Part shown: one piece after another, positions 4,270 through 62,930 of the stretch
Layout: every line of letters begins with the position of its first letter
Numbering within the stretch: position 1 is the first letter of the stretch
Origin: Tubulanus polymorphus
Lineage: Eukaryota > Animalia > Nemertea
Assembly: GCF_964204645.1 (NCBI RefSeq)
Contig: NC_134030.1
Span: forward strand, 16,864,110-16,928,109
Length of the DNA: 64,000 bases
Direction: 5' to 3'
The notes under the pieces: generated by a model
What the model was told of the DNA's origin: nothing
What the model saw: the letters and a program-made list of their open reading frames with translations, nothing else
Databases searched by the model: none
Made by a program: the position numbers and the translations under genes

Positions 4270-6019
4270 TGGTGCTGCCTCGTCCATTCGCACCTGCCAG
4301 TATCCTGAAGCGAGATCCATGACAGCGAACCAACGATTACCGGAAAGGGACCGAATAGAATCATCGATACGAAGTAAGGGGTAATTATCAGAGAGTGTAG
4401 CCTCGTTTAAGGCGCGGTAATAAACGCAGAATCGAGTGCTGTCGTCTTTTTTGAGACGAGCACGATCGGGCTACTCCATGGACTGGGATTCCTCTATCAC
4501 TCCGCAATCGATCAAATCTTTCAAAATCTTGTCTACCTCAGCCTCCTTGTGTATCGAGAGGTGACGGAATCGCTGTTTGATAGGGGTCGTATCACCCACT
4601 TCAATTATGCGCTCGGCATCGACAGCCGCGCCCAAGTCGGTGTCGGACTTAGCGAATATATCTGAATACTCAATTAAGAGTTCACGAACTGGGCGGCTCT
4701 GATCCTCGTCTAATTCGGAGCAACTACAATTAACCAAATCGAGCAAGAACTCGGGTACCTGATTATCAGGCGGAGACTCTCACGGAACGGGAGTCTCATT
4801 GATAAGACGGAGTCGTGAGCTCGACATCTCCTCAGGCCAGACGCATTTAACATTATAAATCGTTGCGATGGCCGAGTTCTGAAGTTCGAGAAGTATGCTT
4901 GAATTCATAACGGAGACAGGTATGATATCTCGCGCGGTGTCGACCACGCATCTAGCGACACACAGATCTGGGCCCAGTCTCGGGTTGTTTATTGTTTTCA
5001 ACTAATGCCCATTTCATAAGGTCACTCTTATCTGACACGCTACACGGGACAACCACTTCTGTCAGAGCAGGGATGACCATTCGCTCATTACATCGGACTA
5101 AGTTTTTATTTTCGGACTCGCAGATTTGGTGCCGGCACTCAATTTGTGACCTTGACACACGAGAGTCTTCTGTTACGGGAAGATTTGACAGTCGCATGAC
5201 ATGAGGAAATCCATTATTTACAAACGGTAAGACATTTACTCGAGCATCGGATACATCCGAGTTTCTATTTCTAATTTTTACCTCTCGTAGTGGCGATTCA
5301 GGGAGATTGTTTCTATTCCCAACCAACCTTACTCCCTCGGTGGGGCTGGTCGACGGGAGTTTAAATCATCGGTTTGACGCGGAGGCTGACTACAATTGCG
5401 CGAAATATGACCAGGTTGCCCGATAGCACAAACGAGGTCCTGGAGCCCTACGGTCGGTCATACGAGACATCATCTGGCTCAGAAACTTCTTTTCTCAAGG
5501 ACGCGATTTCATTATTAGGTGTCTTCGACGAGACTATCTGCCTGACGTATGAGTCGGACCGCTCCTTCTCGCGTTCGATCAAGAATATCCCTTCGAGTCG
5601 AAGCGCATGTATCAATGTCTAACTGCCACAGCCGGAGTCTCATCTCAGCGTCGGGCAGTGCCTCGATAAAGTGTGAACGGGCAAGTCTCTCTCGCTTCAC
5701 CGGATCAAAATCGGGATACGCACGGGAGCAGAGAATTACAATGACTTGGCCCAGTTCCTTCAAACTTTCGTTGCGCTTGCGACGACGATTTCTCAACTCC
5801 GCCAAGTGGACTTCGGCTGACTTATTGAGGCCAAAGCGTGCCTCTAATACGTCGCACATGGCGTCATAATCGCGCATCTGGACCGGGGATAGTTTAACGC
5901 AGACTTACTGTCTTGCAGTCCCCCTTAGCTAAGCAAACAGAAAATCTGCCTTCATATCGTCCGGCCAACCTTTAAGGCGGCTCACGGTTTCGAAGCTCAA
6001 CCTGTAGTCCTGCCATGGA
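4270..6019 (-). mobile_element. Ty3/Gypsy LTR retrotransposon, 3' part (gag C-terminal half, degraded protease-region sequence, N-terminal RT); truncated
   Basis: Minus strand gives WQDYRLSFETVSRLKGW...LRGTAR, YDAMCDVLEARFG (gag) and PIKQRFRHL...SPIVLV...LNEATLSDNYPLLRIDD...FAVMDLASGYWQV (RT). Confidence 0.9.
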
Positions 6020-6113
6020 AGTAATTGGGAAAGTAGGCTTTCATACCAGAGGTCGAGCGGTCGAAACACCACTCATCACCACAAGTAATTTTTTTTCCTA
6101 ATAAATGGGGGAG
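6020..6113 (+). repeat. Polinton left TIR (appears internally collapsed)
   Basis: 6020-6089 pairs with 19428-19497; 6069-6113 pairs with ~19111-19154. Confidence 0.9.
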
Positions 6114-9100
6114 AATGAACACCAGCCAGAAAACAATAATGTTAATAAAAATCAATATTATTGCCAATATTGTAAAAAAATACATCGATAAATCCCAAAA
6201 ATCACGACATGAAAAAACTGCAAATCATATAAAAAATGTAATAGATTTTGAAACTCCAGAAAATCCCAATGAAAGAAAAGAAAGATTAGAAAATATGAAT
6301 GTGGATGAAATAAAATGTGAAGTTTGTAATGAATTTATAGTAAAAAGGAATTATAATAGACATCTCGAATCACAAAAACACCGCCAAAATTTGAGTAATA
6401 ATGTTTTAGGAAAATATTATTTTGATGATAAACCTCAACAAGTAAAAAAACCAACTTCAAAAACTAAATCCATTTCAAATAAACCTTACATGGAAAATGT
6501 TAGAAATTATATTGATTCACTAGAAATAAAAGATACAATTGAAATTTTAGAAACATTACATAGTAAAATTGGTCCAGCAGCTATTATATTTAGATTTTTT
6601 AAAGGAACAACAATAGAAGATTATAGTAAATTTAATGAAATAATAGAAAAAATACTAGATTTGATAACAGATGTTGAATATCCAAAAATTAGTATCTCTG
6701 GGAAAGTAAGTTTTATAAAGTCAGAAGAAAAAATGAATTATAATATTCAAACACACTCTGAAGAAATAATTTCAAAAACACAAATAAAAGAGAAGTTAGA
6801 AAAAATATTTAATGAAATTAAACGTCATATTGAAGAAAGATATTTTGAGGGTTCTGGCTTAACATTGAATGAAATTATATATTTAGATTTAAATGTTTAC
6901 AATACAAAAAGGAATAAAACATCAAAAAGTAATAAAATGTTTAAAAATGATTCAAACTTTACAACAGAAAAGGATATTAAAGCATCATCTTATATTAAAT
7001 TACCATTTACAACAAAAGCAGTAATAAATGTTCAAAATGAAGATAATAAATGTTTTCTATGGTCAATTATTAGTTGTTTACACCCAACAGAAGATATGAC
7101 GCATAGTTTTAGAATAACAAATTACCGGAAATATGAAACATTATATAAAATTGATCAATATCCAGTAACTATAAAAATGATTCCTAAAATAGAAAAAGTT
7201 AATAATTTAAAAATAAATGTATTTGAATTAATGCAATTACCAAAGACAAAAGGTGAAAATATTAAAGATTATACATTGGAAGCTTTATATTTAACAGCAT
7301 ATTATGATGATGAAAATGCTATAGATTTGTTATATTACAAAAAAGATGAAAATGAACATTATATGTGGTTAAAACAAATTGATTTATTCTTTAGAACAGA
7401 AAGTGATCACCATAATAAAATGTATCTATGTAGAAAATGTTTATCTTAATTTATGACTGAGAATACATTATTAAAACATAAAGAATTATGTGATAATAAA
7501 GATTTTTGCAAATTAATAATGCCAACAGAAAAAGATTATAAATTGAAATTTACTAATCATAAATTTAAAAATATTGTTCCATTTGTAATTTATGGGGATT
7601 TTGAATCGTTGAATAAAGAATTAACTGATCAAGATAGAAAAGAAATATATAACAAAAAGCAATTATTAAAATCAATGGATAAAGGAAATGAATGAAATGA
7701 AGACATAATACAAGACCCACCAATTATAAATACAATTAAAAAAGTTCATCAAAGAGCTGCTGCTTATGAAATTTATACAAAATCAAATTATCCTGAATTA
7801 TATGAAAGTCAATATATTTCTTTTAGAGGTGAAAATGTAGTTAATGATTTTTGTGATAAAATGATTGAATTAGAAAGTGATTTTGCAAAATTATTAAACA
7901 CAAATAAAAGAATAGTTATGACAAAAGAAGATGAAATTGATTTTAATTATGCAACTCATTGTTGTTATTGTGAAAAACGTTTTTATTCATTTGATAAAAA
8001 AGTTAGAGATCATGATCATTTAAATTCAAAATATCGTGGAGCTGCTCATGAAGATTGCAATTTACAAGCTAAGAAAGTTAATTTCGTACCAATATTATTT
8101 CATAATTTATCAGGCTATGATACCCATCTATTTATAAAACAATTATCGGGAAAATTGGGCGCAATAAATCAAGAAATAGAAGAATATAATGCTATGAATG
8201 GTGTAAATGTAAGAAAATATGATTTTAAATTATTAGCTTAAACATCTGAAAATTATATTTCATTTCAATTTGGTTGCATTAGATTTTTAGATTCTTATAG
8301 ATTTCTAGCAAGTTCATTAGATAATTTATCAGAATTTTAGTTGATAATGATTTTGTTATAACTCGATATTATTATCCAAATGAACAAGATTTTAAATTAT
8401 TGAGATATAAAGGCGCAATTCCTTATTCATTTTATAAAACACACAATGATTTTAATGTAACAGAATTATTAAAAGATCAATTTTATGATCAATTAAAAGA
8501 GGAGTATTTAGAAGTGTTTATGAGAACGAAGTGTTTAATAGAACATTAAATATTTGGAACCATTTTAAGATGAAAAATCATGGCGAATTAGTTGATTTAT
8601 ATTTAAAATCAGACGTTATGATATTGGCGGACATATTTGAAAAATTTAGAGAAGTTAATTTGAATCATTTTAATGTTGATCCTTGTTATTGCTACTCTAG
8701 TCCTGGTTTAACCTGGCAATGTGGTTTAAAATATACAAATGTAGAATTAGATTTATTAAAAGAACCAGGTATGGTTTTATTATTTGAAAAATCAATTAGA
8801 GGTGGAATTAGTGGTGTTATGGGAGATAGGTATTTTAAAGCAAATGATGAATATAAATTATTATATATTGACGCCAATAATTTATATGGTTGGGCAATGA
8901 TGCAACCTCAACCATATAAAAATTATATATTAACAGAAGTTGAAAATGATGATAAAACTAATTGGGAAAGCGCAATTATGAGTTTAGAAGATGAAGCACC
9001 AATTGGTTATTTCTTTGTAGTTGATTTAGAATATCCTGAAAATATTTTATTTATAATATAAGTTTAAAACAAGAAACTTACCTTATTGCCCGGAACATTT

Positions 9101-11194
9101 AACTGTAGATGATAGTTATTTAAGTGAATACCAGAAGAAAATAAAACCGAAAGATCATGTTTTTACAGAAAAATTAATACTTACTCAAAATAATAAATAC
9201 AATTATATTGTTCATTATAGAATGTTAAAATTTTATCTAAAACAAGGAATGAAATTAAAGAAAGTACATAGATATATTGAATTTAATCAATCGAAGTGGT
9301 TAGAAAAATATATAGATTTTAATACTCAACAGAGAACCATATCAAAAACAGATTTTGAAAAAGATTTCTCCAAATTAATGAACAATAGTTTTTATGGTAA
9401 AACATGTGAAAATATTAGAAATAGAAATGATATTGAATTAGTAAATAATTCTGAAAGATTAAGACATTTACAATCAAGTCCTAGACATTTAGGAAATAAA
9501 AGATTTGAAGATTATTTAACAGCAGTTAAATTAAAAAGAACGTCAATGAAATTTAATAAACCTATATTTATTGGTTCAACTGTTTTAGAAGTATCAAAAT
9601 TATTAATGTATGATTTTTATTATAATGTTTTACAACCACTTTTTGGGGAAAAGCATATTGAAATATTATATTTTGATTCTGTAACAGCTGACACCCCAAT
9701 ATTATTAAAATGTAATGATAAAATATTGATAAGAAGAATTTCAGAAATGATTCCAAAACAAAATGAATGTTATATTTCATATGGTGAAAAAGAATTAATA
9801 CAAATAAATGGTTTAATGGATGTTTGGACAAGAAATGGATGGAAAAAATTAAAGAATATTATTAGGCATAAAACAAATAAGAAAATCTATAGAGTTAGAA
9901 ATTAGGATTTGTAGATGTTACAGAAGATCATAGTTTAATTAAACGAAATGGTGATGAAATAAAACCAACTGATATAAAAATTGGAGATGAATTATTACAT
10001 AAAAGATTTTTCCAAAGAATGAATCATATGTCATTTGATGAAATTATTGATAATATTTATGATATAGAACCCGAAACATTAGAAGAAAAAGAATATTTTA
10101 TCAAAGGATTTTTCATGGGTGATGGTTAAGCAGGTGTGTATAATTATGTTTGGGGTAATAAATATTGTTGGTATTTATGCAATCAAGACTTAAAATTATT
10201 AGAAAGAATTAAGAAATTCTGTGAAGAAGTTTATTCACATAAAACATTTAGAATCATGGATCATATGAAATCATCAGCAGTTTATAGAATACTTGTAAAT
10301 AATCCTAAAGATTTTGCTATAAAATATAATGATGAATTCTATATTCATGCAATAGTGAAAAGTAATACTTCAACTAAAGAAAAGATAGTACCAGATTATG
10401 TATTAAATGCCAAAAATAATTTAAGAAAATGGTTCTTTATTGGATTCTACGCAGCAGATGGTGCTAAAAAATTTACAAAGGATATAAAGATAACCTTTGC
10501 ACAGAAAGGAAAAGTTGCTATATCAGGATTGAATATATTATGCAATTCATTAGGTTTTAATATGAATATTGGATTGATTAAATCTAAACCAAATTGCTTT
10601 AATTTAAGCCACACAGAAAAAGATTTAACTGAAGAAGTTAAAGATTTATTTGAAATATAAAACCCAACAGATTATGTTTATGATTTATCAACTGAAGATG
10701 GTACATTTAACTGTGGATTTCCATTAATAGCAGTCAATACGGATGCGTACATACTAAAAATCAAGACAAATGACATAACAAAAGACTTAAAAACATTAAA
10801 ACATCATTTTGATTTTAGCAATTATCCCAAAGATCATGAACTATTTAGCAATGATAATAAAATGATTCCTGGTAAGTTTAAAGATGAATTAGGGGGCGAT
10901 GAAATGATTGAATTTGTTGGGATAAGAAGTAAAATGTATAGTTACAGAACAAAAGATCATGAAGCTAAAAAGTTAAAAGGAATAACAAAACATGTGGTTG
11001 ATAAACATATAGAATTTCAAGATTATATAAAGTGTTTATATAACTCAATTGTAATGAAACATAAAATGAATTGTTTAAGATCAGAAGATCACGAGATGTA
11101 CATTAATGAAGTTGAAAAAACTAGTTTAAATCCATTTGATGATAAAAGACATATTTCAGATGATGGTATAAAAACATTACCTTATGGCCATTAA
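6105..11194 (+). pseudogene. polB: Protein-primed family B DNA polymerase with N-terminal zinc fingers, vOTU-like region, endonuclease VII-like insert and an intein
   Basis: ExoI VIYGDFES, ExoII FHNLSGYD, ExoIII YLKSDV, motif A YIDANNLYGWAM, motif B KLMNNSFYGK, split motif C YFD/TDA, GKFKDE, KMYS, KLKGI; CxxC...DHDHL...RGAAHEDCN insert; several stops and frameshifts. Confidence 0.96.
9678..10738 (+). mobile_element. Intein with LAGLIDADG homing endonuclease in pPolB motif C (degenerate)
   Basis: Block A SVTADTPILL directly after YFD; block B VDVTEDHSL; endonuclease motifs FIKGFFMGDG and FFIGFYAADGA; block F YVYDLSTEDGTF; terminal Asn (LIAVN) followed by +1 Thr (TDA); frameshift near 9900, stops at 10127 and 10658. 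Confidence 0.93.
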
Positions 11195-12420
11195 AACATA
11201 AAATCAATATCATCATACTCGAAATCACTATTGGCTTCTTCATTTTCATTTAATTGTTCTTGTATAATTTGTATAGGTTCTTCCATTTCATTTTTCTCAT
11301 TTAAATAAAGTTCTATCTTGTACCACATTTCATCTCGCTCTCTTTGTTTCTTTTGTTTGTTAATTCGTCAAATGGAATTATAATATCGATGTTTAAATAA
11401 TTTACAATCTTATTTAAAAAGAATTCATAATTAATTGAATCTGTTATTCTATTTTCCAAATGATACATTAATATTTGTTTGAATATTTTTTTTATATTTT
11501 CCATATCTTCTTCTGTTAATTTAGGTTTTTCATAATAATCGTTAAATAATAAATATAAATACATTTTCTTTTGTTTTGTGTTAAATGTTGACGGAATAAT
11601 TGTTTTTATAATATCTTTTTTAGTTATTTCACCATTTTTATTTTCATTTTTTCAAGCCATTGATATATTCTGGTGTATGATCTTCTATAGAAAATATTTT
11701 AAAAATTTCATCTAGATAATTTAATTTTGGATCTATGAGAAAATTTCTAGTTTTTTCTTCACCCCATAAATTCTTTTGCCATCCACAATCAACACAAAAT
11801 AACACAGTACCTTCTTGTCTTAAGGTCGCATAACTACATTGTGGACATTTTCGTTTATAATTTATTGGTAATAGATCTTCATTAAGCTCCTGGTATTTCC
11901 TTACGTTTTCTTTATGTTTTAATGTTCTATTATGTAGATTTGAATTACTTGTTGTAATAATCAATTTACAATAATATGTTTTTCTTGTTAATTCATTGTA
12001 TTGTTTTTCTAACTTTTCAACTGTTTCTTTATTATCTGGTAACATTTTCTCATATTTTATTTTTTCTAATAAACTATTTTTTTCTTTCATTGAATTCAGT
12101 TTCAAATTTATTAGAAATTTTATCTATATGTACTTTACGAAATTGATGATTCTCCCAATCTTCTATATTTTCAGGGCTGTATTTTATTCGACAAGGCTCA
12201 CAGAAATGATCTTTTATATTATCCTTATCATAGAATAAGAAAGGTCTTTTCCAAATAATTTCAGGTTCAACTTCAACAGAATTACTATTACTTTCATTAC
12301 TATCAACATTAGCCGTTGCGCCATTAATTTTACACTTCTCTGAATGTTTTTAACATAATTTCTTAAGAATAACTTATTACATTTTGGGCAGTTTAGTTTA
12401 GGGGGTTTATAATTGGAAAT
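11191..12420 (-). pseudogene. Poxvirus late transcription factor VLTF3/A2-like protein with extra N-terminal Cys/His motifs (frameshifted)
   Basis: CPQC-x13-CVDC, RNFLIDPKLNYLDEIF, LTEEDMENIKKIFKQIL...SINYEFFLNKI and a later DEMW follow, in order, the vaccinia A2 motifs as I recall them (CxxC..CxxC, KLIHL, EIFKHL, INYSFFLDKI, W); stop overlaps the polB stop in TTAA at 11191-11194; 5' end uncertain. Confidence 0.78.
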
Positions 12421-12449
12421 TTAAATACATCATTTGATACACAGAAACA

Positions 12450-12956
12450 ATTCAAAGTTTTATTTAAAGATTCAATTCATAATGATAAAAATAGATCGAT
12501 TCCAGAAAACATTGTATATCATTGTATAGATATCAAAATTATTTAGATAAATCTCATGTAAGACTAAATTATTGTATAGGCCCTAATCTATTAATTATTT
12601 CTAATGATTTAGTACTAAAGATCGGAAACATAATTGGTTACAATAATCTAATTAAAACTGCAACAATAAATAATTCATTTGGATTAAATGATATAAATAA
12701 AAAGATTACCGCTATAAAATTAATGGAAGGTGAAAAAAATAAAAAACATATTCAATCAACAGAAACTAAAACTTAGAATATTAAATTAAATAATGATTCT
12801 AAACCGGATTATAATACATCAGAAAATATTAAAACTGATAATATTCGACATGATATATTTAAAACTGATAATGATAATAAATCCCATGAAAATACTAAAT
12901 TAGCTTTAACTTGTATAGGAATTGTTATAGGAGGAATATTATATTTTAAATTTTAA
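12450..12956 (+). pseudogene. C-terminal half of a conserved Polinton hypothetical protein; 5' part missing
   Basis: YRYQNYLDKSHVRLNYCIGPNLLIISNDLVLKIGNIIGYNNLI followed by a C-terminal hydrophobic tail LALTCIGIVIGGILYF; no start motif upstream. Confidence 0.5.
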
Positions 12957-12972
12957 TTTTTTTATTATATAA

Positions 12973-14386
12973 ATGGATGTAGAAGGTGGAGAAGATATTG
13001 GAATGGATAATTTTGATGAACCTGGCATAACTGATGAACAACAACCTGATTTTAGTGAAACAAGTTATAATGGTGGTAATGAGCCAGGATATAATAAATT
13101 TTAATATGCCTGATTATATTAAAATGCAGAATCACAATTAAATCCTGAAAACTTAGATCCAGATTTAGTAAAACAAGATTTATATAATTTAAACAAAATA
13201 GAGAAATTAGAATATATAATTGAAAATTCGAAACTTAACGTAAATGATGAAGACGTTGGACCTTTAGCAGATAAATTAATTAGATAATGGTAAATGTTAT
13301 TATCGTTTGAAAGGTGATTATCATATTTATATCACTAATCAAAGGACAAAACTAAAAAAATATTAGCGGAATCAACTTTGAAAAATTTAGAAACATTTAG
13401 AATTAAGAGAATAAGTAATAGTAATGAAATAACTGATGTTACACAAAAAGAAATAGATGATAATATAGACGTATTTAAACAAAGAATTAATGAATTATTT
13501 GAAATAATCAAAAAGAAATCAGAAACAGAAACAACTTCTGAACAGAATATAACTTCCAAAACTAGTAAACTTAAATCAAATAAAGTTTCAATTGAAAAAC
13601 TTTTACCGAATGGATTAATTGATGCAACAGATCAAGAATTAGAAGATTTAAATAATATATTTTCTGTTGAAGCAATTAGAGAAATTAAAAGTATAAGACT
13701 TGCATCTGATTAAATTGCGCATGATAAAAGTATGAGATTTTAAAATTAGAACTTTAGAAAAAGAATTAACTGATAAAAATAAAGAAATAGAACAATTAAA
13801 GTCTGTTTTAGATCATCAAGTAATTGATGAAATAGAATATAGGCAAAAAGAATTACGATTAGAATAAGAAATTAATAATTTAAAAGATAATTTAGAAGTA
13901 CAGAAAGAAGAAATTAAATTGTTATTAAAATCATATGATTATAATATTAATAGATTAAAATTTATTTTTAAAGATTTGTTGATAAAACCAAATTCTGAAA
14001 TATCATTGAGAGATAGAATAAAGTTATTATTTAAATTAGAAGGAATAACAATTCTTTCAATTCTAACAGCTGTAACTATGTTATTTACAACAATAGGTTT
14101 AGCAATATCAAATGCTTTGAAATCTACTCCTACTCCCAATAAACCAGATAAACCCCCAGATAATAATTCTATACAAGATGGTTTAAAGAAATTAGCAAAA
14201 TATTTACGGGAACTATCTAAAAAATCTGCTGCAGCTTTACCAGGAATTATTGCATCAATTGTTGGTTTTATATTGAAATCTGCAGGAAACATTATTAACT
14301 TTGCTGCTGAACATATTATTTTATTTTTAATTACAGTTGTAAGTGCTATTATTTTTGGGTTAGTGAATATGATAAAAAATAAATAA
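12973..14386 (+). pseudogene. Polinton coiled-coil protein with C-terminal hydrophobic/amphipathic helices (putative membrane-associated protein)
   Basis: ATG in the ATAAATGG motif; ORF pieces 13378-13713 and 13919-14386 with ITILSILTAVTMLFTTIGLAI and AAAALPGIIASIVGFIL. Confidence 0.65.
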
Positions 14387-14406
14387 TTAATTTTTTTGTT
14401 AAATAA

Positions 14407-15655
14407 ATGGGTGGGAGTGATATAAGTCCTCCTAAGATTTCTAGAATATCTAATGCTATTAAAGCAGAAAGATCACATCATATAATTACACATAATCCTT
14501 CAAATATTAATCCCGATGAAACTTTATATGTTAGAATTCCTAGATTAACACAAAATACTTTTTTATGTTCCAAATAGTATTTATTTATCAGCTGATATAA
14601 AAGTAACTGGTCATGATAATAATTATGTTGTTGATAATGTTGGGAGATATTTGATTAAAAAATTGACTATAAAGATTGGTCCAGAAACAGTTTTCTCATT
14701 AGATGATTATAATTTATTTATGCATTATAAAGATTTATGGTTAACTAAAGAAAATAGAAATAATATGATATTTCAGGGTATTCAATCGGATAACCATAAT
14801 AAATTAAGATCAGGAGCTAATGACGCAATAGTAACTCGTGCCACAGATAATTTGATTAAAAAGATTTATGGAAGCAAATATAAAATTCCATTAGACTTTG
14901 AATTGATAAATAATAATGCACCTTTATATAAATATGTAATTCAAGAAGATATTATATTTGAGATAACATTTGCTCCTGTAAATGAAATTGTATTATCTAG
15001 CGTTGTTAAAGATATGGGTTATAAATTATCAAATATATGTTTAGAATATGACACAGTAACTAATGAAAATATTGCTACCACAATTCAAACTCAATACAAT
15101 CAAGGATTTTCATTATTATATGATTATATTGATAAATTTAAAACTGTAACTATTAATGCAAATCATGAAATAATTAATGAGAATATTAACTTCCCAAGAA
15201 GATCTATTAAAGGTATATTAATATTTTTTACCATTGCAACATATTCTAATGGCGCAATAAAGGTAGATAATTATTATAATCCTGAAATAACAAAAGTAGA
15301 AATAACTATCGAAGGAATAGCAAATAAAATATTTTGTCAAGGAATGAGAATGATAGATCAATGGCCAGAAATTAGAAAACATTTTATGAATGAAAAAGTA
15401 AAATCATTTGAAAATTGTAATATTAATCAAATTGATTATTATACCGGCAATAAATATGCATTATGGTTAGATTTTAGAACAACAGAGGATAATTCATTAC
15501 ATGGTTCTGGGAAAAAACTACAGAACACTAAAGATGGAATACAATTATTTATGAAAAAGAAAAAAGGAAGCTTAAATTTTAAAATGCACATTTATATTAT
15601 ATCTGACGCACAATTAAATATTGTAAATTCACAATTAGATAGTATTCAATATTAG
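14407..15655 (+). pseudogene. Putative major capsid protein (one frameshift near 14560)
   Basis: About 415 codons when joined; HNPSNINPDETLYVRIP, VDNVGRYLIKKLTIKIG, LSNICLEYD, YALWLDFRT; size, apparent beta-rich pattern and position next to INT/ATPase fit a double jelly-roll MCP. Confidence 0.7.
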
Positions 15656-15685
15656 AAATATAAAGTTAAAATTAACGATATATAA

Positions 15686-16809
15686 ATGGGCGGTAAAAAA
15701 ACTCCTAATACTAAAGAACAATATTTAAGAAATTTATATTACAACCCTGAGAGTTCGGTTGCTTATTCTTCTACCAAAAATATATGGCGTCAAGTAAAAC
15801 AAGATAAATTAGATAAGATAATCCCACAAAATTTAGTTAAATATAAAGATATAAATGAATTTATGTTAGAACAACCAACATACACAACGCATAAAAAAAT
15901 TGTTAGAAAATATAAAACTCGTAAAACTATGGTAAGTTATGTAGATCAACAGTGGCAAGGAGATTTAATTGATATGAAAAAAGAAAGATAATAATGATTA
16001 TTGGTGGTTATTGAATATAATTGAAATTTTTAGTCGTTATGTATGGAGTTTCCCACTTTATAGAAAAGATGCTGTACAAACATCAAATGTTTTAAGAAAA
16101 TTTCTTTCGGATGATAAACTAAAACCAGAAAAAAATACAATTTGATGATGGGAAGGAGTTTGATAATTCACTTGTTCGTGAACTCTTAGATAATCATAAT
16201 ATTAAATATTTTTCAACAAAATCGGATAAAAAAGCAGCAGTTGTTGAACGATTTAATAGAACATTAAGAACAAGAATGTGGAAATATTTTACAGCAAATA
16301 ATACTTTTAAATGGATTGATGTTTTACCAAAATTGATAGAAGGATATAAAAATTCTTATCATTCTTCTATTTGAATGAAACCTATTGATGCTAGAAAACC
16401 TGAAAATGCTGAAATTGTTTGGAATAATTTATATGGAGCATTTCTTGTAGATGATTTTGGTGAACCTAAATTTAAAGTTGGTCAAAATGTTAGAATTTCT
16501 AAGTATAAAAAGATATTTGATAAAGGATACGATCGAAATTTTACTAGAGAAATATATAAAATAAAAAAGGTTATAACAACAAAACCATATGTCTATAAAT
16601 TAGAAGATTTAGATAGTGAAGAAGTTGATGGCTACTTTTACGAAGAAGAATTGAGTTTAACTACTGAAAATCTAGAACAAGAATATAAAATTGAAAAAGT
16701 AGTAAAAACAAAAACTATTAAAAGAAAAAAATATTCTTTAGTAAAATGGGTTGGATGGCCAGATAAATTCAATGAATGGATATTATCAAGTAAAATTAAA
16801 AATATATAA
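15686..16809 (+). pseudogene. Retroviral-type (rve) integrase with C-terminal chromodomain
   Basis: QWQGDLIDM, DDGKEF and KAAVVERFNRT (DDE triad); YKIEKV...LVKWVGWPDKFNEWI chromodomain; frameshifts and a stop. Confidence 0.93.
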
Positions 16810-17417
16810 ATGTATAAGGAATTATTTATATTTGAGCCTCATAATATGTTAATTTCTGGCGTAACAAATTGTGGAAAACTTATTTTATATTAAATTTATT
16901 AGAAACTGTTTATGAAAACTATTTTGATAATAAAGTATAATTTTGTCCAACATATGAATTTAATCCAACTCATGATAGAAATATTACTAGAAATAATAAA
17001 TTGATTATATTAGATCCTAAAACAGTAAAAGAAAATTTAGATAATTGTATAAAGATAGCAATTGATATTTATAAAGGATCAAATACATTATTCATTATAG
17101 ATGATTGTGCTAATCTACATGATTCAAAAGTTAGAGAGAGTGAGTTATGCTATTTAGCTTTTTCTGGCAGACATTCTCGGATAACAACTTGGGTTTTAAA
17201 TCAAAAATATAATTCAATTGTTAAAGACTTTAGAGAAAACATTAGATTTCTAGTTTTATTCTACAATAAAGATAGAAAATCGATGAAAAATGCACTTGAG
17301 GAAAATGATATTATTCCACATGATTTACATAATGAATATATGGATAAGTTGAAAAATATTAAAAGATCAAAATTACTATTTAGATTACAACACCCATTTA
17401 AATATGAATTTATTTAA
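16810..17417 (+). pseudogene. A32/FtsK-like genome packaging ATPase
   Basis: Walker A GVTNCGK(T), Walker B LFIIDD, SGRH and LNQ motifs; frameshifted after Walker A. Confidence 0.88.
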
Positions 17418-17419
17418 AT

Positions 17420-17695
17420 TCAACTAGCTCGTTAATCTAGTTGAATTCTAGTTACATTCTAGTTGAATTCTAGTTATTGGTAGTTGGAACAAAAATCAAC
17501 TAGATTTAACAATATTTTAACTAGCTTGTTAATCTAGTTTAATTCTAGTTACATTCTAGTTGAATTCTAGTTATTGGTAGTTGGAACAAAAATCAACTAG
17601 ATTTAACAAGAAATAAACAAAAACAACAATATTTCAACTAGCTTGTTAATCTAGTTGAATTCTAGTTACATTCTAGTTGAATTCTGGTTGCAACA
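17420..17695. repeat. Palindrome-rich tandem repeat (~2.6 copies of a ~100-117-bp unit) inside the Polinton
   Basis: CAACTAGCTTGTTAATCTAGTTGAATTCTAGTTACATTCTAGTTGAATTCT repeated at ~17421, ~17518 and ~17635. Confidence 0.9.
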
Positions 17696-17721
17696 TCACA
17701 ACTAATTTTTTTGTTATATAA

Positions 17722-18327
17722 ATGGTAGGTGAAAAGAAAATAAAATCTAAAAATGGTGATGTTCCAATTGAAAAAACTTTAGATGATTTAGGAATAACAG
17801 AAAACAAATTAATTCCAGATGATGGCGCTTTAAATAATGTTACAACAAATAATAATTATGAATATTATCTTTATTGTAAACATCAATTAGAAATATTAAT
17901 AGCATCTGGAAAATGTAAAAATTTTGTCGGTAAAAATTTCACTTATAATGAATTAGATACAATGAAATCAGATGAAATTATTAGATTATTTAAGATTTAT
18001 GAAGCCGCGAGAACAGCTAGAATTAATGACGCGATATCAGAAAATGTAGTAAAAGGTTATAGTAAATTATGTAATTATATACTACCAATTGAAGATGAAA
18101 ATAGATTATATTCCTTTTTAAAAAATGACTATTTAGTTATGACTGAATTACATAAATGGATTGGATATTTATCATTTCAATTAGGTGGATCTATGACATT
18201 ATTATCAACTGGAGTTTTAACATTTTCAAATATTGAAAGTAAAAATATTTCTATAATAAATGAACAAGGTGGAAGAAGTGAAGGAATTAAATGTGAAGAA
18301 AAAACCGAGATCACAGAAACAAATTGA
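17722..18327 (+). CDS. Polinton hypothetical protein (201 aa)
   Basis: Open ORF starting at the shared AATTTTTTT-N5-ATAAATGG motif. Confidence 0.65.
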   Translation: MVGEKKIKSKNGDVPIEKTLDDLGITENKLIPDDGALNNVTTNNNYEYYLYCKHQLEILIASGKCKNFVGKNFTYNELDTMKSDEIIRLFKIYEAARTARINDAISENVVKGYSKLCNYILPIEDENRLYSFLKNDYLVMTELHKWIGYLSFQLGGSMTLLSTGVLTFSNIESKNISIINEQGGRSEGIKCEEKTEITETN

Positions 18328-18628
18328 ATGGTCTCGGCAATTAGGAATTAAATCACAAGAATATAAAAAAGCTGTAAAAGAAAAAATAAGTAGTAAAAAT
18401 GTTAATAAAAATAGTGAAAATATTGTTATTTCTACTCCTTCTAATGATAGAATATTTGATAAATGTCTATATTTTACAGTTGGATTTGTAATTGTATTCA
18501 TTTTGATTGGGTGTAATTGGTATAAGAAATCAAATAAAATTCATGATATTAATAATTCTGAAACAACTGCTATCAAAAATGAAAATACTTCTGAAATTCC
18601 AAAATTGACAATAAAAAAAATGGATTAA
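18260..18628 (+). CDS. Polinton small protein with one predicted TM helix
   Basis: ATAAATG start; hydrophobic CLYFTVGFVIVFILIGCNW segment. Confidence 0.6.
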   Translation: MNKVEEVKELNVKKKPRSQKQIEWSRQLGIKSQEYKKAVKEKISSKNVNKNSENIVISTPSNDRIFDKCLYFTVGFVIVFILIGCNWYKKSNKIHDINNSETTAIKNENTSEIPKLTIKKMD

Positions 18629-18759
18629 TATTTTAGAAAAAAAAAGCAAAAAAATAATTTTTTTAAATTAATTGAATATTAATTGAATATCCCTCTACTT
18701 TTGTCTATCTATGCGGAGCAATTAAATTGTCCAGATAAGTCATTTCGGATTCTAGATAT

Positions 18760-19118
18760 TCATTATTTTTATTAATTTATTTTTTTAAATTTAATCAACA
18801 ATTTCTAAATCATGATGGCCATCTTCATTTTTTCCATGATAGATTATTTTAAAGCCTTCTAAATCTTTTAATTCCTCTGTACTCAATGAAACCCATTTAT
18901 CAGGTAAAAATACTTAAAATTCTCGCGATGTACTAACATTACAGTAGCTTAAATTAGCTGATACTTTCTCTCCATATTTAGTTTTTATCTTTTCTAATTT
19001 CAATATTTTATGTTCAATTTCTTTTGTAACATCAACTAACTTTTTTATTTCAAATTGTTTTTTTTGCTGGTTTTATTCTGTTATTTATTGTTGCTAAGAA
19101 TGCTTTTCTATCTCCCAT
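18760..19118 (-). pseudogene. Degraded small Polinton ORF(s) initiating at the right-end repeat
   Basis: Minus-strand ATAAATGG starts at 19118 and 18896; broken reading frames. Confidence 0.35.
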
Positions 19119-19497
19119 TTATAAGGAAAACAAATTACTTGTGGTGATGAGTGGGGATTACTTCCCCCTGTATATAACAAACACGCTATTAACCGTTCTC
19201 ACCCAAGCCTCACAGCATCTATTTATCTGGGCACAGTTGACACGCAATCACTGTACTACAGTAATAGCACACGCGTTAATAACCGTTCTCAGTAGAGACT
19301 CACTGTATCGATCTATCCACGCGCAGCTGTTGTTACGCGCACTCACTGTATATGTGTACCACAGAGCAATCGTCCGTTCTCACTAGAGCCTAGCTGTGAT
19401 GAGTGGTGTCTCATACTCAATTGATTTATTACTTGTGGTGATGAGTGGTGTCTCGACTGCTCGACCTCTGGTATGAAAGCCTACTTTCCCAATTACT
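19111..19497 (-). repeat. Polinton right TIR/subterminal region with internal direct repeats
   Basis: GTGATGAGTGG three times (~19144, ~19396, ~19438), CCGTTCTCA three times, CACTGTA three times; ends AATTACT then TSD. Confidence 0.85.
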
Positions 19498-19895
19498 CAT
19501 GGACCATCGCCCGAAAAACTTTCAGGTTTTATATTGCAGGTCGCAAAGTTACGACTTGGTGCAATTGGAATCGGCGTGCCCTTACGAGGAATATCGCGAC
19601 GATCTCTCAATGGAGACATCTCATTTCGGGGCATATTCAAATCTTCAGTACTATGGCTACGCGGACCAAGCGAAGGCGAAGAGGCACGAGTTATCGGACG
19701 GCTCATCTTAACGGATTTTCTTACGCAAAAACTATGAGATAAAGACGGACTATTATAAACCCTATACTCATTCGACAACGTGTAATCGACTTAAACTAAT
19801 TCGTCATGTGATGTTTCTGGGTATTTGATCCGAAACCGAGGCATCCAACCACAAAAAAGAATACATCGCAATAGCCGAGAGGATTATGATAAATC
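19498..19895 (-). mobile_element. Gypsy element 5' part: leader and gag N-terminus, continuous with the sequence ending at 6019 once the Polinton is removed
   Basis: ORF ends NIKPESFSGDGP and joins through the CATGGA TSD to WQDYRLSFETV. Confidence 0.9.
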
Positions 19896-44435: not shown

Positions 44436-45739
44436 AAATTTTCTAAATTTGAATTATTTCATTGAATAAGTATAACAATGGGCCCATACACATGGATTAT
44501 TTCTTACTTTTACACAAAGAAAATTCATTTTTTGAGCACCCAAAATGCACCAAATTGCTTGCGATATTTGAAAATTTTCCGAAAATTCGAAAAATTGAAT
44601 ATGCCGAAGCTCCGATCGCACCGAAGCACCGAAGTTCCTGCTATACTGAAATATGCCCAACGTTCATTCAAACATCCATCATCGGTGAAAGTATGATTAC
44701 TGTATACATGTACTGCAGGTTTTAATGTTGTATGAATATTTTGCAGTTCAAATGGGTATGATGCTGATTCCAATTTAAAACACATGAAGTTAAATGGTCA
44801 AGGACAGTCAACACCAAGATATCTCTCTTCGACCGATGTTGTACCATAGAAGATATGATTCTTTCAACAAAAGCAAAGTGATTCAACACGATCGACATAA
44901 CACTGGAATAGGTTTGCAGTGAATAACAGTTCATTTCATTTAGTTCTATGTACTTTTTAGCCAATCTGGATTTGATTGTTATTGAAACTCTGGGACTGTT
45001 AACAAGAGACAAGTAAGACAAGTGGAAAAAACACAAGTTATGCTTGATTCTCATATTCAAATTTAATTCGAATGCAAATTTATTCTATTACATCATATTA
45101 CAAAGCATATCATTGGTTCATACAGTAATACAAATTAGGAAAGAACAAATTGTATTATAGAATTTTCAAAAAGGTAATGAATTTCTATAACTAAATGAAC
45201 ATTCTTTTTCTATTACTAAGATCAGGAGTGACTCTCCCGTTTATTAGAAAGAAATGCACGCAGCTGATGGAATAGGTTTGATATTTACACACATGTTGCA
45301 GGTATAAATTGTTTATCAGTATAGAATTTGTAATCCATAAACATCGGCCCGAAACCCAGACCACATCAATTCAGAATTTATTGATTGAATCTACACTATA
45401 GTATATGTACATATTCAAATAATTCAATGAAAAGATTAACTTCTTAAATCTATTCCAAATCATAATACGTTCTTCTCTGTACTAATCATAATTTACTCAG
45501 TCTATCGACTCAGAAGGTGCTTAAGACGAGTTCTTAATAGGACAGGTTAATTTTTTAAGCGTGGTGATAATACAGTATCATGAAGTTTGAATGCCAAAAT
45601 AAATGCCTGGTCGAATAAATTCATATTTGTTGATTTTACGTCCGTGTATGTTCGGTTTCAAAGATGATTCACATTTGACGTGTACATAGCTGTTGCATAT
45701 TAGGTTCGAATCTGTCGATGCATTTTATTCTATGTATCG

Positions 45740-48600
45740 GTATAGTGACCATCGCCCAATCAAGCAACAACCGAGGCGTTTACCACCGGGTCATAGTAAG
45801 TTTTTCGAGTGTCATACTGCCAAATTACATAGTCACGGCCTCATCCGACCATCACAATCCCCCTGGGCCAGTCCCATCGTCTTGGCCAAGAAGTCCGATG
45901 GTAGCCTTAGGCTGTGTTGTGATTATCGGAAGTTAAACGACGCTACGATAAAGGACAGCCATCAGGTGGGACGAACTGACTCCACTCTTGAGGCTCTTTC
46001 GGGGTCGTCATGGTTCTCCTCTCTTTACCTCACAAGTGGGTACCATCAGGTGCCTATACAGGAGATGGATAAACCAAAGCATTCTGCACATAAAATCGAT
46101 TGTGGGAGTGGAACGTCATGGCGTTTGGCCTAACTAAAGCCCCTGCCTGTTTTTCTCGGCTTATGACTATGGCCCTGGATAAGGTTTCATGGAAAACTGC
46201 GTTGATATATCTCGATGATGTCATTGTTCACTCAGCTGATGTTGCGTTACACATCAGTAAACTCGCTGAGGTGTTTTCATGTTTCCGATCCGCAAACCTT
46301 AAACTGAAACCGAGAAAATGTCTCCTACTGCGGAGACGGTTGAAGTTTTTGGGCATCATTGTTAGTGGGAATGGTATGGAGGCTGACCCGTCCAAAGTTG
46401 AGAAAATTATGAACTGGCCTGTTCCAACCACGGTTTCAGAGGTCCGCAGGTTCACAGGGTTAGTGACCTATTATTCAAAGTGTATTGAGGGGTATTCCCA
46501 AATGTGTCGTCCCCTACACCAACTTACTAAAAAGGGCCATGTTTTTGTATGGGGAATGGAGCAACAGCAAGCATTTGACGCCATAAAGATGGCACTTATT
46601 TGCCTTCCTGTTTTGGCCTTCCCTGATTTCGAGACAGGTGCAGGCAAATTTATTATCCACTGTGACGCTAGTGACAGGGCAAGTGGTGCCGTACTTACGT
46701 GTAGGCAGACTCGTCCAAACGGGTGATCGCGTATTCTGGTCGCACATTACGGGGTGGTGAAGAGAATTACTGTGCCACCAGGCGAGAGATGCTTGCCCTA
46801 GTCGATATGATTGAACACTTCCGGCATTACCTGTTGGGCCTGAAATTTTTGGTGCGTACTGACCATGCAGCACTTAAATCCGGTCTTCAAACATTCAGTC
46901 TGGACAAGTTGCCCGCTGGAATGAACGGTTGACCGACTATAACTTTGATATTGAACACCTGCCCGGGCGTATCCACTTAAATGCGGATGCGCGGTTACAG
47001 GACGAGGACGCCGACATATCGATAGTTAAGGACTTAGTTTTCATCGACAACAGGTTAAACCTAGTGCCGATGTTATGCGTAAGTTTAGCACGAAAACCAG
47101 AGTGTTTCTTGGTGAATATGAGCAACTTGTTATTGACAAGGCCGTTTTATGTTTGAGACCTGCCCCTGGATCCAGCCTTTAAAACCACGTGTCGTTCTGT
47201 CTTACGTGTTACTGCCTAAGGCTTTGTCACACCTTCATGACGGTATCTCAGGACAGAACGCACTAAGACAGAACGGAAGATGCGCGAACGATTTTGGTCC
47301 CCTGGCATTACTAGAGCTGTGCACGAGTACATCCAACAGTGCCAGAAATGTCAACAGTGCAAAAATCCACCCTAGCGACCGAAGGCACCTTTGGTGTCGA
47401 CACCAGTTGGTCCTAGAGGGCAGAGGTTGCACGTTGATATAGTGGGCCCCCTACAGTGTATTAAACGTGACAACACATACGTTATTGTTGTCCAGGACGC
47501 TTAAACTAAGTGGGTGGAGGCATGGCCAGTACGGAATGAAAAGGCCCCCACTGTGGCTCGAAAAGTTGTGGACGAATGAGTGACGAGGTATGGCTGCCCA
47601 GAAAGCATTCACTCCGACCGAGGAGCCAACTTTGAGTCCAAGGTTTTGGCAGAAGTTTGTCGACTGTTGGGTATCGATAAGACAGGTACCACCTCGTATC
47701 ACCCAATGGGAAATGGTCAGGTGGAAAACTTAAGTAAATCAATCAAGGCCAAGCTGACCATATCCGTGAACGAAACCGGCACTGACTGGGATACGAAGCT
47801 GTCATCTTGCCTGATGGCATTCCGTTCTAGTGTTCAGGAGTCCACTGGCGAGATCCCTTTTTACCTGACCTTTGGTTCAGAGATGGTCTTTCCTCTGGAT
47901 ATCATGGTTGGACCACCCGAAGAACCAGTGTACAATATTAAGTTTAGCCGTGATGTACACGCCAACCTACAGGAGGCGCACCGTAGGGTTAGGGAGAGAC
48001 TGGGTAAGGCTCAGCGGCGTCAGACTACTAATTACGATAGATTTGCTAGGCGGGGTGGGCATAACGTTGGTGATAGGGTATGGCTCAATAGTCATGCCAT
48101 TAAGTCAGGGGAGGCTGCCAAATTTCATAAGAAGTGGAAGGCCCTTCATTATGATCGAAAAGCTGTCTGAGGTGACGTATCAGGTCAGACCGGAGGGTGG
48201 TCCCCGAAAGCCAAAGGCCGTCCACTTTAATGATATGAAGCCAGCGTTTGGCAAGCCCCCTACCAACGTTAACAAGGCTTTCCCTGTCAGAACGAATAAA
48301 AGAACAGTAGAGCCCCATCCAGCCCATGAGAGTGAAAGTTCAAGCTCTTCAGGGAGCGATGATGGGGAGATTGTCTGGTGGCGCCCCAACGACCGGATTG
48401 TTGCAGCACCTACAAATGACGCTACACCAATCGAAGCAGAGGCAGAAGTCGATCCCCCAGCGAGTCAGCCTGTGGAAAATGCCCAGCCGCATCCACCGGC
48501 CGACAACGCAGATCAATTTTGTCGTTTGCGTCCGAGGAGAGCATTGAAACAGCCAGCCCGATTCAGTGACTTAGTTCGTCATTGCTCGATGACCCAGAAT
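45740..48600 (+). pseudogene. pol: Gypsy pol (RT-RNaseH-integrase), frameshifted
   Basis: ORF pieces 45693-46133, 46100-46726, 46723-46932, 47580-48170 and 47872-48768 carry successive pol motifs. Confidence 0.92.
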
Positions 48601-48726
48601 CCGGGAGAAGAAAGACCTGTGGCTGAAGAAAGGGCGAAAATTGCTGCGAGACAGAAAACACCTCACCGGTTAAACTCTCTGCTCTCCAGCCAACTTAACG
48701 TTTTTCTCTGTTTTTTAGCTACCAAA

Positions 48727-61100: not shown

Positions 61101-61495
61101 GCGACCCTTCCCGACTCTTCGAATCGAGCCTTTCCTTCGAGCAACTTTAGAATGGCTGTGCCGCGCGGAGCGTGCCCGACCGAACGAGCACTCTGATTCA
61201 ACCCTTTCAACTGCCTCCAACTCGGCCTGCGCACAAGCCAGTTCCTTTTCGAGGGAGAGCCGTCGTAATCCTTCTTCTTCGTGGAGTCGCTTTAGCTTTC
61301 TTCTCCGACTCTAAATTTAAGGACTTAAGTTCGACTTCATGTCTAGCAGCCTTTGCTGCTATCCTGCTTCTAAGTTTACTGGACGACTGCGTGGACGCGA
61401 CACTCATGTCATCGACTGCTTTCGATCGTATCTCTGCCGCGCTAGCGAGGGCTTCCAGTCCATCCATCTTACTGTCGGGACTCGGTCCAATGGAG

Positions 61496-61863
61496 TGACT
61501 GGCGGTGGTTATTTATTTAAACATATTGATAAAAATGGATCATTAACAGAACAAAAAAGACATAACTTAGCATTAGAAAAATTCAATAAAGCAGCAGAAG
61601 AATATAGTGAAAAGAGGCAAAACTATATGGATTATATTAACAAGGAATTATATGATCAGAAGATTTCACATAGAGATTTTCAATCAGTTGATGATGCAAT
61701 GAGTTTATATAACGCGGTAACCAATAAAGAAAAATTACATCTATACAAACCTAAATTATCAGATTATTATACCCCAAGTAAAGAACAACAGAAATATGAA
61801 ATAATATGGATTTTAGGTGGAACTGTTATTGTTATATTTGTAGCATATAGATTTACTAATTAG
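61496..61863 (+). pseudogene. 5'-truncated Polinton protein with C-terminal TM helix
   Basis: EQKRHNLALEKF...PKLSDYYTPSKEQQKYEIIWILGGTVIVIFVAY. Confidence 0.55.
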
Positions 61864-61882
61864 TAATTTTTTTGCTAAATAA

Positions 61883-62310
61883 ATGGATGATAATATTGAT
61901 ATTATTCCTCATGATATAAATAAAACTAAATTAAAAACATATTTAGAAAAACAAATATTAGAATTTGAAAGTTACTTAAAGATAAAAAAGAAAAAATTAT
62001 TAAAATCTAAAATTATATATTATTTTATTATCAGTGGTTCGGTTACAATTAGTTCTGTAATAACATTTCTAGCAATATTCAGTCCATTAACACCTTTAGC
62101 TATATCAATTGGTGTATTAGGATTATCATCAAGTGTATTAACTGGTATAAGTTCAAAATTAAATATAAAAAGTAATAAAGATAAAAATTAAAACTAATAT
62201 AAAAGAAATTAATAAATTAAAGAATACACTAGATTATATAATCAGTTTAAATGGTCATATAACAGTTGAAGAAAAAGATAAATTATTAAAAGAATTAATA
62301 AATTATTGAT
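61883..62310 (+). pseudogene. Polinton two-TM small protein (frameshift near 62190)
   Basis: Hydrophobic hairpin IIYYFIISGSVTISSVITFLAIFSPLTPLAISIGVLGLSSSVLTGI. Confidence 0.55.
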
Positions 62311-62325
62311 TTTTTAATTATATAA

Positions 62326-62930
62326 ATGGTAGATAGTTTTCCAAAAGCTTTCCAATATAATAAATCAATTAAATATAATATTCCAGCAATAGATTTTAAT
62401 AAAGATATTTCATATAGAAATGAAGTTTTAAATTCATTAATTGATTTATATATTTATGTTACTGAAACTAATTATTTTAATGTTAAGATGGAAAATATGT
62501 TTCATGTGTATACAATTAATTTTAAAAATTTAAATGAGGCAAATGGTTATTAAAATCTAATATGAAGTATTGGCAGAACCAATTAAATTTTGCTGTTTAT
62601 TGCGCAACAACAGGATGTGGAATTAGTTGGAATGATCATTTAAACAAACCAAGTTTACCATTGATGTTATCACTTTTTAGATTTCATACATATTTTCAAG
62701 TAAAATTAATATTAGATGAATTAGAATGTCCTTTACCAGGTTCAAAATATTTTAAAGAATTGAATAATAATATTAATTTTTCTAAGTTTTATAAAATATG
62801 TAATGAATTTAATATTAATTCAAATAAATATTCAAATAATTAATTCAAAAATTGGAACAATGGGTGGATTAGGAATATTATATACTAAAGAATTTGGAAA
62901 AAAAAGTCCTCCCAAATTACATTCAACTTG
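62326..62930 (+). pseudogene. N-terminal half of a conserved Polinton hypothetical protein
   Basis: YWQNQLNFAVYCATTGCGIS...FRFHTYFQ..IL.EL..PLP; in-frame stops. Confidence 0.55.

Follow-up and report, generated by a model that had tools for sequence, protein, structure and literature searches.

Probable poxvirus-type promoter motif at the gene starts of an integrated Polinton

Genes of a decayed Polinton in the genome of the nemertean Tubulanus polymorphus begin at a two-part motif, which is very probably a promoter of the viral post-replicative kind. The element lies in a 64,000-nucleotide stretch of contig NC_134030.1, referred to here as the window and numbered from its first letter. The motif combines an A/T-only core at positions -18 to -12, which is either a T-run or an A-run, with TAAATG placed over the start codon. 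G and C are nearly absent from the core, the spacer at -11 to -7 tolerates them, and positions -6 to -1 read WWATAA. As in poxvirus post-replicative promoters, TAAAT(G/A) lies over the start codon at all ten window starts, which are those first named in an initial annotation of this DNA, and a T-rich (late) or A-rich (intermediate) core stands at a fixed distance upstream. The ten sites are listed below, with polB for the DNA polymerase gene, MCP for the major capsid protein, INT for the integrase, and start positions for genes lacking a name.

6087..6108, plus strand, T-core promoter-like site of polB (ATG 6105), within the subterminal repeat
12955..12976, plus strand, T-core promoter-like site of the 12973 gene
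14389..14410, plus strand, T-core promoter-like site of the MCP gene (ATG 14407)
15668..15689, plus strand, A-core promoter-like site of INT (ATG 15686)
16792..16813, plus strand, A-core promoter-like site of the ATPase gene (ATG 16810), inside the end of the integrase frame
17704..17725, plus strand, T-core promoter-like site of the 17722 gene
18242..18263, plus strand, A-core promoter-like site of the 18260 gene, inside the end of the 17722 frame
19115..19136, minus strand, T-core variant of the 19118 gene, within the subterminal repeat 19111-19159
61865..61886, plus strand, T-core promoter-like site of the 61883 gene
62308..62329, plus strand, T-core variant of the 62326 gene

The exact pattern AATTTTTTT-N5-ATAAATGG occurs five times in the window, always on the plus strand and always beginning 18 nt before an ATG (6087, 12955, 14389, 17704, and 61865), just as had been claimed for polB, the 12973 gene, MCP, and the 17722 and 61883 genes. 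Two further starts for which the motif had been claimed, 62326 (site at 62308) in the second fragment and 19118 on the minus strand, carry one-letter variants of it. The initial annotation had also recognized a single motif class and had left INT, the ATPase gene, and the 18260 gene with ATAAATG only. On the contrary, an A-run core occupies the same -18 to -12 positions at these three genes (AAAATTA, AAAATTA, and AAAATAT, respectively), and two cores, a T-run and an A-run, have to be distinguished.

TTTTTT-N5-ATAAATG with at most one mismatch was found nine times against 1.38 expected, a count reached by none of 100 shuffles. Within the AT-rich element, the exact pattern was observed four times and never in 500 shuffles of the element alone, so the motif stands out from a shuffled background; it is absent from the 47.6 kb of host DNA. 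ATAAATG by itself is weakly enriched (17 vs. 11.1 expected, with 24 of 500 shuffles reaching 17), which indicates that the signal consists of core plus initiator. The polB and 19118 sites are not independent, because each lies in a copy of the same subterminal inverted repeat (6064-6112 and 19111-19159; 90%).

A matrix trained on 52 starts from 11 related loci, with the window excluded, placed the ten window starts at ranks 1-10 of the 591 ATGs of the element, and none of 1,899 host ATGs reached the lowest-scoring of them. The core alone told the ten starts from 33 other TAAATG sites (p 6e-6). Comparison with homologous N-termini gave a clear match for eight of the ten starts and a weak one for 12973. 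No homologous N-terminus was found for 6105, which was placed by its position and by a CxxC pair within the first 28 codons. The second minus-strand start that had been put forward, at 18896, was rejected: the site lies within the 19118 gene in another reading frame, has only 15 open codons behind it, and comes 24th in the matrix ranking. The five-residue likeness of its frame to the start of another gene was judged to be chance, since it is a different frame that is conserved there as coding sequence.

Conservation and anatomy of the motif in related elements

The motif is real and lineage-wide. An alignment of the capsid protein led to 25 related loci, all from one metagenome scan (L073-L077 were dropped as short degraded matches), and none was found in the viral contig or genome contig collections. 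Starts were taken from open reading frames (ORFs) of at least 100 codons, called blind to the motif. TAAATG was present at 30 of 33 starts in five close loci, compared with 53 of 1,097 other ATGs, and at 22 of 35 starts in twelve mid-distance loci, compared with 36 of 1,289; in three far loci it was found at one of eight starts. These counts overstate independence, because the near-duplicate contigs L054, L064, and L066 are counted along with L053 and L065. Several starts without TAAATG are internal methionines of broken frames. A separate scan of viral contigs for the exact motif gave 52 loci with one match each, which is compatible with chance, and was not used.

The motif is not a product of AT content, since it is kept at 40-44% GC (three of four starts in L057 and two of three in L058) and missing at 29-30% GC (none of three in L067 and none of four in L068). 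The distant relative L070 carries TAAAAATG, which is one A longer, at three of its four starts (553, 1837, and 1875), including a two-way pair 37 nt apart. In the capsid tree the motif-bearing loci cluster, though support is weak (0.585) owing to the incompleteness of three outer sequences. Capsid homologs with 56% identity (the P0008 cluster) were also seen on short contigs filed under Bartonella assemblies; these are likely host-arthropod DNA and would extend the lineage to insects or other arthropods.

The 46 TAAATG starts include 28 T-core sites and 17 A-core sites, the latter with T as the last base of the core (-12). The T-run of the window sites spans -16 to -10 and is centred on the 10th base upstream of TAAAT, and the T peak of the relatives lies at -12 to -15. 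The ATPase start has an A-core in the window and in all five TAAATG-bearing loci. Across 68 starts in relatives, position +4 is G at 66% and A at 29%, so the final G is not fixed, and position -3 is T at 79%. Kozak contexts have a purine at -3.

Six head-to-head gene pairs (four of them independent) carry TAAATG on both sides with the ATGs 19-30 nt apart, and a single shared core serves as T-run in one direction and as A-run in the other. The reading as a shared virus-type promoter had been put forward on the poxvirus late architecture of a T-run, a short spacer, and TAAAT(G) over the start; the mRNAs proposed there would be near-leaderless or carry a 5' poly(A) leader. The promoter reading is supported by the T-run centred on the 10th base upstream of TAAAT, as described for vaccinia late promoters (PMC11980589, PMC5294985), and is strengthened by lineage conservation, by these two-way promoters, and by a VLTF3-like gene absent from the initial annotation. 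The accompanying remark on TTTTTNT, the poxviral early terminator, received no specific support, as this sequence is depleted on both strands of coding DNA (sense 9 vs. 22.8 expected, antisense 142 vs. 183, in close relatives).

Several genes of the relatives deserve mention. Free-standing HNH-type endonuclease-like genes carry the same motif at differing positions (L053:5568-6080, L057:3289-4020, and L058:1717-2445), which indicates that acquired genes adopt it. An unassigned zinc-finger gene following the capsid gene (L053:2461-3684, L054:1748-3040, and L062:2287-3117) has the purest A-core, AAAAAAT. A deoxynucleoside kinase gene in L055 (10343-10981, minus strand; PF01712, E 2e-31) has its own T-core site and stands head-to-head with the VLTF3-like gene. 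For a 126-residue ORF of L055, an atlas search gave no assignment.

A predicted VLTF3-like factor

The minus-strand gene at 11194-12420 is predicted to encode a VLTF3-like factor. In this copy the gene has lost its promoter and initial codons at a junction near 12400, where the start region of the minus-strand gene is fused to the 3' part of a plus-strand gene. An exhaustive search returned three relatives, P0262-P0264, of which P0262 matches three consecutive window pieces; a word-index search for longer homologs of the window piece found none. P0266, a member of the P0262 cluster, is identical at 141 of 143 positions to the last ORF of the Polinton contig L055, and this ORF begins at TAAATG. 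P0264 lies on a contig of 12,994 bp, the same size as the contig of a capsid homolog, which suggests that the two may be linked.

The predicted fold of the P0262 domain (pLDDT 79) has an N-terminal zinc ribbon followed by the VLTF3 helical domain, and both P0262 and P0263 carry a long N-terminal zinc-finger extension. Five matches reached E 0.001 or lower in a Foldseek search against viral models. Three of them (ranks 1, 2, and 4; E 3e-5 to 3e-4) are VLTF3 proteins, from two entomopoxviruses and from cowpox virus, and the other two (ranks 3 and 5) are unnamed. Most of the matches at ranks 6-33 are VLTF3 proteins from other large DNA viruses; the template modeling score normalized by the query was 0.55-0.63 for the named top matches. 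In a language-model atlas search, Pox_VLTF3 clusters, which include Preplasmiviricota, made up 26 of 30 matches (0.93). Searches of the PDB by sequence and by Foldseek gave no significant match, and alignment to solved structures (VIA-align) gave weak matches to TFIIB and cyclins, with Z of 4.2-4.8 and no match reaching 5. The gene is thus predicted to be VLTF3-like, and its poxvirus affinity is a ranking, not a tree.

Proposed transcription by a borrowed polymerase and alternative explanations

We favour, by somewhat more than an even chance, the reading that a co-infecting poxvirus-like helper supplies the RNA polymerase that recognizes the motif, aided by the predicted VLTF3-like factor of the element. 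The polymerase would be borrowed, because no RNA polymerase gene was seen in the parts of the element: Pfam gave no match in the window pieces and 30 ORFs of relatives, several of which are unassigned and among which there is no complete element. Every intact start, including those of polB, the integrase, and the VLTF3-like gene, uses TAAATG, which leaves no host-type early gene or promoter to begin an autonomous cycle, so the integrated element would remain silent until a helper infects the cell. Intermediate-stage factors of the helper would then read the A-core class (ATPase and integrase), as vaccinia A32L and A2L are intermediate genes, and the TFIIB-like factor of the element would join or displace the A2-type factor of the helper and draw the polymerase to T-core sites.

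Transcription would begin within the AAA and slip; the resulting 5' poly(A) leader would take the place of the genomic T at -3 and create a strong AAAAUGG start context. We infer that the prevalence of T at -3 and G at +4 would fit a start context completed by such a leader. AATAAA is not avoided in the coding strands of close relatives, where 29 ORFs contain 126 copies (5.6 per kb) vs. 129 expected; this would fit transcription in the cytoplasm. A wider view, which we hold tentatively, is that the animal Polinton lineage is a virophage of an undiscovered poxvirus-like virus of marine invertebrates, with a mini cascade of its own, and that its copies act as a heritable, infection-triggered antiviral. 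Intermediate factors of the helper would switch on the VLTF3 of the element, which would capture the helper polymerase for late promoters.

Several points weigh against transcription by a poxvirus-like helper. No helper virus was found, and the host genome was not searched for one. AATAAA is mildly depleted in mid-distance relatives (26 vs. 36.7 expected, z -2.4). Mriyaviruses, described as having VLTF3 (as well as VLTF2) but no RNA polymerase, are proposed to be nuclear (PMC11253617). The motif is not specific to Poxviridae, since TAAAN initiators are also reported for yeast virus-like elements (PMC6211774). The core class varies for a given gene: capsid starts are T-core in most loci, but those of L058 and L064-L066 are A-core, and a mixed core, AAAATTT, precedes the VLTF3-like start; as capsid starts switch class between loci, the two-stage reading is weaker than the promoter reading. 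The VLTF3 call itself rests on predicted folds. The Pfam match of window piece 11316-11651 to Pox_VLTF3 (E 0.015, 15.5 bits) falls below the gathering score of 25 bits, is ranked under an unrelated family, and is one of seven rows, and Pfam gave no match at E 0.1 for the full relatives P0262-P0264. For the top Foldseek matches the root-mean-square deviation is 11-12 A, and poxviruses outscore other large DNA viruses by a narrow margin that may stem from similar length.

Some of these points would suit an autonomous nuclear mode, in which the TFIIB-like VLTF3 homolog recruits host RNA polymerase II (Pol II) and no helper is needed. An integrating element reaches the nucleus; the factor combines a zinc ribbon with a helical domain, its weak best matches among solved structures being TFIIB and cyclins; and both the mriyavirus proposal and the AATAAA depletion in mid-distance relatives are consistent with Pol II. 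Nevertheless, we consider this mode unlikely. The gene of the factor starts at the same TAAATG site, so nothing obvious would start the cascade, and starts 19-30 nt apart leave little space for two complexes, considering the footprint of a Pol II complex. Moreover, AATAAA is undepleted in the coding strands of close relatives and follows the stop codon within 63 nt in only 14 of 60 genes, and translation would start poorly with T at -3 unless this base were replaced through slippage. A reading of the motif as a Pol II TATA box was rejected, since with the usual TATA-to-start spacing a TATA at -6 to -1 would place the transcription start downstream of the ATG.

A helper from outside Poxviridae (egovirus-, asfarvirus- or iridovirus-like), whose late promoters share TAAAT by chance, appears improbable. 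VLTF3 is common to nearly all Nucleocytoviricota, whose VLTF3 proteins fill most of Foldseek ranks 6-33, basal egoviruses related to poxviruses have been described from marine sediments (10.1101/2024.03.23.586382), TAAAT is reported in some ranavirus promoters (PMC5294985), and the named nearest relatives of the host retroelement are mostly from marine invertebrates and fish. However, the combination of a T-core, a spacer of 5-7 nt, and TAAAT(G) overlapping the start has been described for poxviruses, the motifs reported for mimivirus, CroV, and PgV differ, and the best named fold matches are poxviral.

It is very improbable that the motif is no promoter and serves as a context for translation initiation, as a stop-start junction, or as a poly(A) signal belonging to an upstream gene. 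AATAAA does overlap many sites, many read AATAAATG with TAA directly before the ATG in frame, and +4 is often G. However, TATAAATG is found at many others, most upstream frames stop at a distance of 7-100 nt or are in a different frame, the fixed core 12-18 nt upstream carries information of its own, T at -3 is unfavourable for translation, and head-to-head pairs, which have the motif on both sides where an upstream gene is absent, show that neither a poly(A) signal nor a stop-start junction is the general cause.

Comparison with known systems

In vaccinia late promoters, TAAAT(G) is described as overlapping the start codon, with a conserved T located ten bases upstream; intermediate promoters are described as having TAAA and an A-rich stretch followed by T (PMC11980589, PMC5294985). 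The element resembles vaccinia in both respects, with TAAAT(G/A) over the start, a T-rich core centred on the 10th base upstream and a 5-7 nt spacer, and a second class, whose A-rich core precedes a T and to which the ATPase gene belongs, just as vaccinia A32L is reported as intermediate. Unlike vaccinia, it is an integrating Polinton in which an RNA polymerase gene was not seen, the class is not fixed per gene across the lineage, and the motif stands at all genes including the DNA polymerase gene, with no early class.

Small integrating viruses that share promoters with a larger virus have precedents. Mavirus uses the late promoter of CroV (PMC8547959), and promoter sharing is described for Gezel-14T/PgVV (10.1101/2022.07.28.501842). 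Like mavirus, the type-4 EMALEs of Cafeteria burkhardae, and Gezel-14T/PgVV, the element is small, integrating, and AT-richer than its host, and its genes share a motif typical of a large DNA virus. It differs from them in that the motif is of poxvirus type rather than TCTA or AAAATTGA, the host is an animal, the putative capsid is of the Polinton lineage, a VLTF3-like gene is carried along, and the promoter matches the consensus of a virus family rather than that of a particular helper.

Polinton-like viruses (PLVs) have been reported to co-purify with entomopoxviruses and were proposed as poxvirus hyperparasites (Barth et al. 2024, PMC11296320); two of these are described there as divergent members of the mavpol2 capsid clade. 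The words promoter, TAAAT, and transcription do not occur in the main text of that paper, nor VLTF or promoter in its supplement. Figure legends label VLTF3-like genes for a MELD virus (PMC8502044, with no occurrence of "promoter" in the accessible text) and for PLVs (10.1101/2022.07.28.501842). In predicted fold and language-model features, the factor of the element resembles VLTF3 (A2-type, PF04947) of Nucleocytoviricota, mriyaviruses, and some PLV/MELD viruses; unlike known VLTF3, it is below the Pfam cut-off and occurs together with promoters of the corresponding poxvirus type in an animal Polinton that has an integrase.

Slippage as the source of a 5' poly(A) leader has been shown for vaccinia and for yeast virus-like elements (PMC6211774). 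The yeast elements pGKL1/2 are linear, share the TAAAN initiator, and yield non-templated 5' poly(A) by slippage; they are described as encoding an RNA polymerase and a capping enzyme and as having an early-type upstream element, none of which was seen here. Membership of the pGKL type was rejected, since an integrase and an ATPase are present, and neither an RNA polymerase nor, in the window pieces and the ORFs of relatives, a capping enzyme was matched.

In the literature searched, which was mostly open-access, we found no report of poxvirus-type promoters in animal Polintons, alone or paired with VLTF3. Promoter borrowing by small integrating viruses is known from mavirus and Gezel-14T; the finding of the VLTF3-like gene is new.

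Structure and gene content of the element

With its predicted polB, a retrovirus-like integrase, terminal inverted repeats (TIRs), a 6-bp target-site duplication, and an A32-type ATPase, the element is a Polinton/Maverick (Polintoviricetes). It has a GC content of 24.6%, compared with 40.2% for the host DNA, and was inserted into a retrotransposon gag-like frame. The features are as follows.

6020..19497, no strand assigned, decayed and internally deleted Polinton of 13,478 bp
6014..6019 (left) and 19498-19503 (right), no strand assigned, 6-bp target-site duplication CATGGA
6020..6089, plus strand, left TIR, 70 nt, 97% complementary to 19428-19497
19428..19497, minus strand, right TIR, partner of 6020-6089
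6105..11194, plus strand, polB (protein-primed DNA polymerase B) gene in pieces, with an endonuclease VII-like domain and PF03175
11194..12420, minus strand, VLTF3-like gene in pieces, with zinc fingers, a C2-C2 zinc ribbon, and a helical domain
12397..12956, plus strand, 3' part of a gene whose 5' part is in the second fragment; homolog L055:2996-4321
12973-14386, plus strand, 12973 gene in pieces; homolog L055:4328-5782
14407-15655, plus strand, MCP gene in two pieces, labelled from gene context and the initial annotation
15686-16809, plus strand, integrase-chromodomain gene (INT) in pieces, matching the L055 integrase region
16810-17417, plus strand, A32-type packaging ATPase gene in pieces (Pox_A32)
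17722-18327, plus strand, intact 201-codon conserved Polinton gene, function unassigned
18260-18628, plus strand, 122-codon gene
starting at 19118, minus strand, gene with homolog L055:125-466
61495..62930, plus strand, second fragment of the same lineage, with three genes matching L055:2014-3568

Piece 8570-9058 matches PF03175, the protein-primed family B DNA polymerase, at E 2e-7, and piece 16941-17414 matches Pox_A32, the A32-type packaging ATPase, likewise at E 2e-7. The integrase pieces are 63-79% identical to the L055 integrase region, which itself matches rve (E 1.5e-10) and Chromo. The MCP has 651 homologs, unnamed or hypothetical throughout among the 120 matches listed, and no Pfam match. 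The predicted fold of the 17722 product (pLDDT 63) gave no assignment, and Rfam gave no match. No maturation protease was detected, either in this deleted copy or among 30 ORFs from the partial contigs of relatives.

The second fragment (about 61495-62930) matches part of what the first copy lacks. Contigs of three public runs stack on the element, with a single-contig depth in one of these runs of 323-672 compared with 11-30 on unique flanks, which indicates a multi-copy family; these depths are not a copy number, and the right end of the element lies outside that coverage.

The catalytic motif of polB is split by an intein-like insert (about 9681-10723, plus strand) with a weak LAGLIDADG match (E 0.023), and in L057 the sequences on either side of it are joined without a break. 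The ATPase gene is separated from the 17722 promoter by a tandem array (17419-17729) in which an AT-rich 97-nt repeat made up of TCTAGTT units is present two and a half times; this array may be an origin or an expanded spacer. The sequence CACTCATCAC occurs in four copies (6070, 19153, 19405, and 19447) in the terminal regions only, two of them directly upstream of a promoter core, and may be a putative binding site of an element protein. The right subterminal region (19174-19329) contains two GC-richer 66-nt direct repeats (71%). Gypsy-type and BEL/Pao-type retrotransposon frames occupy host DNA at 45732-49559 and 57479-61467, and the BEL element adjoins the second Polinton fragment.

Implications for animal Polintons

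How animal Polintons, which are virus-like but lack an RNA polymerase, are transcribed and mobilised is an open question. A 25-nt promoter of poxvirus geometry together with a matching late factor makes their transcription directly testable. If the host polymerase reads the motif, VLTF3 would be a stand-alone TFIIB substitute working with Pol II, which would bear on mriyaviruses and other polymerase-less large DNA viruses. If instead a poxvirus-like helper does so, an unseen virus is predicted in the host, the satellite would carry its own factor to redirect the helper polymerase, and the mavirus-type virophage lifestyle would extend to animals and poxvirus-like helpers.

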